In this document: positions 1,980-3,716 of the stretch, one piece after another
How the letters are laid out: each line of letters opens with the position of its first letter
Numbering within the stretch: position 1 is the first letter of the stretch
From: a virus
Lineage: Duplodnaviria > Heunggongvirae > Uroviricota > Caudoviricetes
Reading direction: 5' to 3' (one strand)
IMG/VR virus record: IMGVR_UViG_2740892270_000007
Length of the DNA: 7,312 nucleotides
Made by a program: the position numbers and the translations under genes
The notes under the pieces: generated by a model
What the model saw: only the letters and a program-made list of their open reading frames with translations
What the model was told of the DNA's origin: nothing
The model's database searches: none

Positions 1980-3333
1980 TTTCTGGACTATGCGGGCACG
2001 TAACAAAGTGCTTTATGGTGGTCGGTCATCGTCAAAATCATGGGATGCCGCTGGCATTGCCATATTTCTGTCGAATAAATACACCCTGCGTTTTTGTTGT
2101 GCCCGTCAGATCCAGAATAAAATCGAAGAGTCGGTGTATACCCTGCTCAAAATTCAGATAGACAGGTTTGGTCTGCGGCACCGTTTCCGTATTCTGAACA
2201 ACAAAATCATTAACCGGGTTACTGGCTCGGAATTTGTTTTTTATGGATTATGGCGCAACATCGAAGAAATTAAGTCACTGGAGGGGATCGATGTGTTGTG
2301 GCTGGAAGAAGCCCACGCACTGACGGAATACCAGTGGAAAATTCTGGAGCCAACGATCCGTAAAGAGGGTTCGGAATGCTGGTTCATATTCAACCCCGGA
2401 CTTGTTACTGATTTCGTCTGGCGCAACTTCGTTGTTGATCCGCCCGAAGGCACTCTCATCCGCAAAATTAACTATGACGAAAATCCGTTTCTGTCTGACA
2501 CCATGCTTAAGGTTATCGACGCGGCGCGACGCCGTGATCCGGATGGTTTTAAACATGTGTATGAGGGCGTTCCGGAGTCTGATGATGATGCGGCAATCAT
2601 CAAACTGTCTTGGATAGAAGCCGCAGTGGATGCGCACAAAACGTTAAATTTCGAACCCAGTGGAAGAAAGCGTATTGGCTTTGACGTGGCTGACAGTGGT
2701 ACAGATAAGTGCGCTAACGTTTACCGTCACGGATCCGTTGTTTTCTGGGCCGACGAATGGAAGGCCAAAGAAGATGAATTACTGAAGAGCTGCCAGCGTA
2801 CTTATCAGGCGGCGCTGGAGCGTGAAGCAGATATTGTTTACGACTCTATCGGTGTTGGTGCGTCTGCCGGTGCTAAATTCTCTGAAATTAACGCTGACCG
2901 GAAGAGCGAGAACGCATACGCGCGACGTGTGAATTACCAGAGGTTTAACGCCGGTGCTGGTGTGCATGAGCCAGATGACGAGTACAACGGCATCCCCAAC
3001 AAAGACTTTTTCGCAAATCTTAAGGCTCAGGCATGGTGGCTGGTGGCTGACCGTTTCAGAAATACGTTTAACGCCATTAACAACGGAGAACAGTATCCTG
3101 TGGATGAGCTGATCAGCATAGATTCTCGTTGTCCGTTGCTTGAAAAGCTGAAACTGGAACTGACAACACCTCATCGTGATTTCGACCGTAACGGACGTGT
3201 GATGGTCGAAAGTAAAAAAGACCTCGCAAAACGCGAGATACCGTCACCAAACGTTGCTGATGCATTCATTATGGCCTTCGCGCCAATCGATACATCGCTG
3301 GATATCTGGGAACAGCTGGGGAGACAGGCCTGA
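1930..3333 (+). CDS. terminase large subunit (ATPase/nuclease), PBSX-like family by N-terminal motif
   Basis: Frame open from 1822 (TTG) to TGA at 3331-3333. Internal ATGs at 1891, 1903, 1906, 1912, 1930 and 1990; I chose 1930 (MTSTLTSKPTLNPALRSFW...), giving ~467 aa and a ~50-nt overlap with terS, but the start is unresolved. Walker-A-like YGGRSSSKSW (2017-2040) and acidic motifs (VLWLEEAH) typical of large terminases. Stop overlaps the next start (ATGA at 3331-3335). Confidence 0.85.
   Translation: MTSTLTSKPTLNPALRSFWTMRARNKVLYGGRSSSKSWDAAGIAIFLSNKYTLRFCCARQIQNKIEESVYTLLKIQIDRFGLRHRFRILNNKIINRVTGSEFVFYGLWRNIEEIKSLEGIDVLWLEEAHALTEYQWKILEPTIRKEGSECWFIFNPGLVTDFVWRNFVVDPPEGTLIRKINYDENPFLSDTMLKVIDAARRRDPDGFKHVYEGVPESDDDAAIIKLSWIEAAVDAHKTLNFEPSGRKRIGFDVADSGTDKCANVYRHGSVVFWADEWKAKEDELLKSCQRTYQAALEREADIVYDSIGVGASAGAKFSEINADRKSENAYARRVNYQRFNAGAGVHEPDDEYNGIPNKDFFANLKAQAWWLVADRFRNTFNAINNGEQYPVDELISIDSRCPLLEKLKLELTTPHRDFDRNGRVMVESKKDLAKREIPSPNVADAFIMAFAPIDTSLDIWEQLGRQA
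3039..3046 (+). other. Chi site (5'-GCTGGTGG-3') inside terL
   Basis: Exact octamer read directly from the sequence; functional only if the host is E. coli-like. Confidence 0.6.
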
Positions 3334-3710
3334 TGGCACGAAACAAACAAGCCCTGCGGCGAACTGTGCAGGCCACAGCTGATGGTTATGAGAATTTTAT
3401 TGCCCGCGTAGGGATGCAGACACCTAACCAGCACTCAGCATCCACCTACCGGGCTAATTTCACCAGTCGTAACCGCATGCTGGTGGAATGGTCCTATCGT
3501 TCATCCTAGATCATCGGCGAAGCAGTCGATGCTATCCCGGATGATATGACCCGCAAAGGCATTCGCATCACTTCGGAAATTGATGCAAAAGATCGTGGCA
3601 TTCTCGAATCACAACTGGATGAGTTGCAAATCTGGGATGCGCTGAATGACGTGCTGAAATGGTCGCGCCTCTACGGCGGCGCGGTGGGTTTCATCATGAT
3701 TGAGGGGTAG
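3333..3710 (+). pseudogene. portal protein N-terminal segments, split by two in-frame TAG codons (3507-3509 and 3708-3710)
   Basis: ATG at 3333 overlaps the terL stop. The frame reads MARNKQALRRTVQATADGYENFIARVGMQTPNQHSASTYRANFTSRNRMLVEWSYRSS-TAG-IIGEAVDAIPDDMTRKGIRITSEIDAKDRGILESQLDELQIWDALNDVLKWSRLYGGAVGFIMIEG-TAG-APMTPL..., the same frame as the portal body starting at 3717. Combined length (~500 codons) fits a portal. Confidence 0.6.
3479..3486 (+). other. Chi site (5'-GCTGGTGG-3') inside portal N-terminal segment
   Basis: Exact octamer read directly from the sequence, same orientation as the site at 3039. Confidence 0.6.
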
Positions 3711-3716
3711 GCACCA

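Follow-up and report, generated by a model that had tools for sequence, protein, structure and literature searches.

Two amber codons in the portal gene of a defective Shigella sonnei prophage

The stretch of DNA analysed here (7,312 nucleotides (nt) of the Caudoviricetes record IMGVR_UViG_2740892270_000007, hereafter the window) carries terminase and head genes of a prophage remnant of Shigella sonnei, among them a portal gene interrupted by two in-frame amber (TAG) codons. The TGA stop of the large terminase gene, terL, at 3331–3333 shares 1 nt with an ATG at 3333–3335, and the frame opened by this ATG runs into TAG at 3507–3509 (codon 59) and again at 3708–3710 (codon 126). The two stops are spaced 201 nt apart without a frameshift between them. 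A preliminary description of the window, made from its letters alone, had reported both the overlap of the terL stop with this ATG and the pair of amber codons in an otherwise intact frame, and direct reading reproduced both. In the list of open reading frames (ORFs) the portal gene appears in three pieces, at 3333–3509 (58 amino acids, aa), at 3546–3710 and from 3717 onward. The features of the portal region, in window positions, are as follows:

3333–4839, plus strand: portal pseudogene (Phage_portal_3 / DUF1073), 488 codons in intact alleles; contains the two ambers and spans the run of N at 4338–4630
3507–3509, plus strand: first amber, W59am; TGG to TAG via G3508A, the G pairing with the methylated C in what was ancestrally a Dcm site (CCTGG, 3505–3509)
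3708–3710, plus strand: second amber, Q126am; CAG to TAG via C3708T, in the context GGGGCAGGC, which is not a Dcm site
4255, plus strand: A308V, the third S. sonnei-private portal change; C to T, at a variable alignment position
3546–3710, plus strand: internal fragment ORF of 54 aa (M72 to G125), a separate gene in public annotations
3717–4839, plus strand: C-terminal fragment ORF of 360 aa (from M129 onward), preceded at a distance of 9 nt by a Shine-Dalgarno-like motif, GAGGGG
4338–4630, no strand: run of 293 N standing for 253 real bases, as read from identical S. sonnei loci and from relatives

The bases hidden under the run of N are the same in the S. sonnei loci as in Escherichia coli VL40, an intact relative, and are open in the portal frame. 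The run is 40 nt too long and shifts the frame that follows it in the window, so that the apparent portal stop at 4644–4646 is an artefact and the real stop lies at 4837–4839. Of the portal body as first described, the continuous frame from 3333 stood, while its 3′ end at 4646 had to be moved to 4839. The same excess also creates a false long ORF start (4691) for the gene after the portal. A mask of the wrong length can produce a false gene end, as it did here.

Intact versions of the gene were found in related prophages. Related DNA is present in 382 of 5426 complete E. coli genomes; the closest relatives, at 99.7–99.8% identity, are FDAARGOS_943, FDAARGOS_944 and VL40. Among the retrieved loci, L001, L004 and L005 are the nearest prophages, and L002 and L003 are more distant. 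Each of the three closest relatives holds an intact gene of 1467 nt under the annotation ‘DUF1073 domain-containing protein’; it opens at the same ATG, overlapping terL, and encodes a portal of 488 aa with sense codons at both positions. WP_000113499.1 is the accession of the intact allele. Intact portals starting at the equivalent of 3717, which would have made the upstream part an unrelated gene, were not found. The intact sister allele scored 355.4 bits against PF06381 (Phage_portal_3, formerly DUF1073; cut-off 33.8) and 255.1 bits against TIGR01555 (HI1409 family; cut-off 196.25), and the window fragments 3546–3710 and 3717–4839 scored 40 and 274.5 bits, respectively, in the portal family profile test. 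Gene order agrees with this assignment. In the relatives, as in the annotated phages SEN34, ZF40, KpV79 and VchM-138, the genes run terL, portal, Phage_Mu_F, DUF2213, cement, major capsid, with the portal directly between terL and the gene for a Mu F-like head morphogenesis protein; the homologues in the four phages bear portal annotations at the corresponding place behind terL. An uninterrupted frame of ∼470–490 aa, expected of a portal, is lacking in the window copy (stops at codons 59 and 126), which is a pseudogene of the portal family and not a functional member. We also observed that one protein of the more distant relatives L002 and L003, WP_338933611.1 (locus 4134–5600), goes by ‘DUF1073 domain-containing protein’ in one assembly and by ‘anti-CBASS protein Acb1 family protein’ in another. 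The present Pfam name of the family is Phage_portal_3, and Acb1 seems to be an inconsistent label for a portal protein.

The ancestral state of both interrupted codons could be read from these relatives. The five E. coli relatives first examined, near and distant, all have TGG at codon 59 and CAG at codon 126. A haplotype scan, using a pattern for all four haplotypes on species-representative genomes and metagenome contigs, added 13 further loci, every one of them TGG and CAG and one of them from S. flexneri SFBU1023. This brings the combination TGG plus CAG to 18 of 18 non-sonnei loci (E. coli, S. flexneri and metagenomes), and TAG plus TAG was found at 8 of 8 typed S. sonnei loci. Neither W59 nor Q126 varies among six aligned portals with identities down to 27%. 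Between the S. sonnei and VL40 portal alleles only 3 of 1467 nt differ, namely G176A (W59am), C376T (Q126am) and C923T (A308V). The simplest reading offered in the preliminary description, two nonsense mutations from TGG and CAG in a decaying prophage, is borne out by all 18 intact relatives, and the residues found opposite the two stops in intact portals are the expected Trp and Gln.

The double-amber allele recurs across the public S. sonnei data. With the run of N set aside, the window is base-for-base identical to 5 S. sonnei chromosome loci among the 10 loci retrieved (L006, L007, L010, L011 and L012), and L009 and L014 show one difference each from the left part of the window; the comparison left out L008, L013 and L015, which were not in register. 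One of the identical loci, L010, is HE616528.1, that is, S. sonnei 53G (PMC5447701). Public assemblies contain the 58-aa fragment in 2737 indexed blocks, and each of the three portal fragments occurs on at least 1000 contigs, under source names such as ‘putative bacteriophage protein [Shigella sonnei]’. Furthermore, the allele is found in two upstream structural contexts, one in L010, L012 and L014 and the other in L006–L009 and L011. Because of the identical loci and the many contigs with S. sonnei names, the stops are natural and fixed in S. sonnei.

These observations bear directly on whether the stops could stem from sequencing or assembly error or from a laboratory double-amber construct, as had initially been entertained. 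Classical conditional-lethal amber portal mutants, obtained after G:C>A:T mutagenesis and grown on supE or supF hosts, do look alike in sequence, with TAG replacing TGG or CAG through G:C>A:T changes in an intact frame; beyond this likeness a construct is a general possibility only. The S. sonnei allele differs from such mutants in being natural and fixed, in being double with two different ancestral residues, and in belonging to an element without capsid and tail genes for which no suppressor was found. Error is ruled out by the identical sequence in many independent S. sonnei assemblies from different projects and in two upstream contexts, and a construct by fixation of the allele in a natural pathogen species, the 58-aa piece being indexed in 2737 blocks and every fragment present on at least 1000 contigs. 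We therefore consider an artificial origin of either kind extremely improbable.

The pseudogene is already present in public annotations, where it is split into ORFs and the 3717–4839 piece is named ‘putative bacteriophage protein’. Our literature search found no paper on this particular portal pseudogene and returned only general statements on pseudogenisation driven by insertion sequences (IS) and the strain identity given above. Three small S. sonnei ‘putative bacteriophage proteins’ can now be recognised as pieces of one dead portal gene, which is a matter of annotation hygiene; the importance of the finding beyond that is little. Throughout the species, the substitutions G3508A and C3708T mark the S. 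sonnei copy of a prophage family that is common to other Shigella and enteroinvasive E. coli (EIEC)-like strains.

The portal gene lies within a set of terminase and head genes that ends abruptly at an IS element. The remaining features of the window are:

508–1020, minus strand: DedA/VTT-domain gene (‘DedA family protein’, WP_011069285.1, in relatives; Pfam VTT_dom), with the change S95S at 736
1215–1979, plus strand: 254-aa protein in the small-terminase position; no Pfam match; ends in TAG
1930–3333, plus strand: large terminase subunit (PBSX family / Terminase_3), intact; annotated in L004 and L005 (locus 2731–4134); Pfam Terminase_3
4730–5473, plus strand: head morphogenesis protein (Phage_Mu_F); overlaps the 3′ end of the portal by 110 nt (4730–4839), as annotated in relatives
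5477–6697, plus strand: DUF2213 / Pa193_gp24 head protein, intact
6701–7207, plus strand: capsid cement protein (Gp24-like), intact
7219–7222, plus strand: remnant of the major capsid gene (DUF2184 / Major_capside), ATGA, 4 nt; the L004 start at 7980 maps to 7219, and divergence begins at 7223
7223–7312, plus strand: left end of IS1, 90 nt, matching without a difference the ends of two IS1A copies annotated in L034

InsA and DDE_Tnp_IS1 genes follow downstream of the window end in L006–L015, and the IS1 at the capsid junction occupies 13851–14618 of L010. After this IS1 the S. sonnei loci continue with host genes (a pgl-like lactonase and a LysR regulator), another IS1 and aconitase. Since host genes stand directly after IS1, the rest of the prophage, with its capsid, tail and distal genes, has been lost in a deletion that IS1 mediated. 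Upstream, an IS splits the holin gene, and more IS copies lie near the antiterminator region of the S. sonnei loci. With a major capsid gene cut after 4 nt, an IS-interrupted holin gene and a portal gene carrying two stops, the element is a defective prophage.

Suppression or recoding of the stops, in which a host or phage suppressor transfer RNA (tRNA) reads TAG and full-length portal is made, was the other alternative raised at the outset. Stop-codon-recoded phages, including some gut phages, read TAG as an amino acid in their late genes, and the portal shares with them the presence of in-frame TAGs in a structural gene. It also speaks for this idea that both stops are amber in an otherwise intact frame and that prophages of the same family carry a tRNA cluster. 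Against it, no tRNA genes were found in the window; the 20-kb S. sonnei loci, scanned as loci and not as whole genomes, hold only tRNA(CAT) and none with a CUA anticodon; and no CTA anticodon occurs in the four-tRNA cluster of the sister prophage (CAT, TCT, TGT and TAC). A search of these three places for amber-suppressor tRNA genes was thus negative throughout, unlike what would be expected of a recoded element. The adjacent terS-like gene (1215–1979) ends in TAG, which shows that TAG is a working terminator in this prophage element. Moreover, the portal has two TAGs only, and these are not conserved in relatives, being sense codons even at 99.8% identity and in 18 of 18 non-sonnei loci. Since the ancestral residues, Trp and Gln, differ and are both invariant, no single suppressor would restore the portal, and in a remnant devoid of capsid and tail genes there would be nothing for a portal to assemble with. 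Read-through expression of the portal is accordingly very unlikely, and a suppressor or recoding system can be given hardly any weight.

When changes are polarised by the more distant relatives, four substitutions are private to S. sonnei across ∼6.9 kb, one of them the synonymous 736 C>T (S95S) in the DedA gene. The other three, 3508 G>A, 3708 C>T and 4255 C>T, lie in the portal. Every one of the four is a G:C>A:T transition; numbers this small allow no further conclusion. Deamination of 5-methylcytosine at Dcm sites (CCWGG) is a classic mutational hot spot, and Coulondre and Miller reportedly described amber hot spots of lacI at such sites in 1978. The hot-spot position, the inner C of CCWGG, is hit by W59am alone, as a G>A change at position 4 of CCTGG; like the lacI ambers, it lies opposite the methylated C and creates an amber codon. 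A change of this kind at this position bears the signature of 5-methylcytosine deamination. Q126am is unlike them in lying outside a Dcm site. A Dcm context for all four private substitutions was considered and rejected, since Q126am, A308V and S95S are outside CCWGG. The portal gene has three Dcm sites in all, and if four G:C>A:T changes occur in the shared span, the probability of one or more of them falling on a Dcm position is 0.028. W59am most likely arose from deamination of 5-methylcytosine at the Dcm site, and Q126am is an ordinary C>T change. As a nonsense mutation sitting on a Dcm hot spot, W59am makes a clean example.

Decay of the same prophage family is also visible in other lineages. 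In FDAARGOS_943, terL carries an IS2 and the Mu F gene a stop, and in VL40 tail genes are interrupted by IS150 and IS2. In S. dysenteriae Sd197 (L035 9211–10001, CP000034.1), where the DUF2213 and cement genes are split too, an IS1 replaces everything upstream of the window equivalent of 3640, at about portal codon 103. An amber shared with S. dysenteriae was considered, as the Sd197/1617 fragment is also 360 aa long and belongs to the same protein cluster; it was rejected on finding CAG at portal codon 126 of Sd197. The equal length arises because the 360-aa fragment begins at the first ATG after the IS1 cut. The portal loss of Sd197 is a lesion independent of the S. sonnei ambers. More generally, PMC8072062 describes pseudogenisation caused by numerous IS elements as a hallmark of Shigella genomes.

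Taken together, we favour ordinary pseudogene decay in a defective prophage fixed in S. sonnei, brought about by two nonsense transitions and involving no recoding or suppressor system, with a probability of about 0.93. On the S. sonnei branch, two G:C>A:T transitions, presumably independent, converted Trp59 (TGG) and Gln126 (CAG) to TAG. Translation from the ATG at 3333 would then stop after 58 residues and yield no full-length portal, and restarts could add at most the 54-aa and 360-aa fragments. No particles can form in any case, the major capsid and all tail genes having gone with IS1 and the holin gene being split by an IS. The ambers would be neutral lesions, in a gene from which selection had already been lifted or was about to be. 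The mutations, the codons that they replaced, their fixation in S. sonnei and the IS truncations are established by the comparisons; deamination at the Dcm site, neutrality and the order of events are inferred. The claim of the preliminary description that the prophage probably cannot build a portal from 3333 is upheld, as translation would end after 58 residues at stops that are very unlikely to be read through.

Several points weigh against this account. No single-amber intermediate that would put the two hits in order or show them to be independent was seen among the 26 typed loci; the tRNA scan of S. sonnei covered the loci, as given above; and the deamination origin of W59am assumes Dcm activity in the S. 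sonnei lineage. In addition, nonsense changes make up two of the four S. sonnei-private substitutions and the portal takes three of the four, which is uncommon under neutral mutation. A random portal substitution creates a stop with a probability of 0.036 (0.062 for G:C>A:T changes only), and the probability of at least two nonsense changes among three portal substitutions is 0.004 for random changes and 0.011 for G:C>A:T only, values that are post hoc, the stops being the reason why the window was picked.

This excess of nonsense changes could reflect adaptive inactivation, that is, selection for portal loss in the ancestor of S. sonnei. Portal made from a deregulated remnant might have been toxic or have set off a portal-sensing (abortive-infection) defence, or its loss might have blocked packaging by a still-active terminase. 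The portal changes comprise two nonsense, one missense and no synonymous substitutions (P ∼0.004–0.011), three of the four private substitutions fall in a gene that makes up ∼21% of the span while the flanking 5 kb of head genes is unchanged, and the same gene was independently destroyed by IS1 in S. dysenteriae. However, the counts are tiny and come from a window chosen for its stops, and one of the two ambers lies in a known mutational hot-spot context. A second, downstream nonsense mutation adds no loss of function, so selection cannot explain both, and other genes of the prophage family have been broken at random in other lineages. We regard selected loss as improbable, though somewhat less so than suppression or an artificial origin, and retain neutral decay as the preferred explanation.

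Among known systems, the pseudogenes of Shigella cryptic prophages, which arise by IS insertion, by IS-mediated deletion and by point nonsense mutations, are the closest match. They share the host group and the type of element, with IS1, IS2 and IS600-type copies around and inside the prophage, and likewise have lost essential morphogenesis genes whose fragments are annotated as small ORFs. Nothing essential sets the present case apart; the portal here was hit by two point mutations and not by an IS.

Some minor observations concern the neighbouring genes and the sister prophage. The 254-aa gene at 1215–1979 overlaps the annotated terL start by ∼50 nt at its 3′ end. For the Mu F-like gene, some gene callers place the start 285 nt further downstream (152 aa), and its start is uncertain. 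The DedA/VTT membrane protein gene is cargo (a ‘moron’) encoded on the opposite strand, with the lysis cassette on one side and the terminase genes on the other; the S. sonnei remnant and its closest relatives have it in common, and the more distant L002 and L003 lack it. Lastly, the VL40 prophage (L034, NZ_CM177011.1 1612000–1661000), the nearest relative with an intact portal, is of the myovirus type and riddled with IS copies (IS1, IS600, IS4, IS150 and IS2). It carries the four-tRNA cluster and adjoins, at its end, an ipaH gene for a type III secretion system effector; the ‘E. coli’ hosts VL40, FDAARGOS_943 and FDAARGOS_944 look Shigella/EIEC-like.

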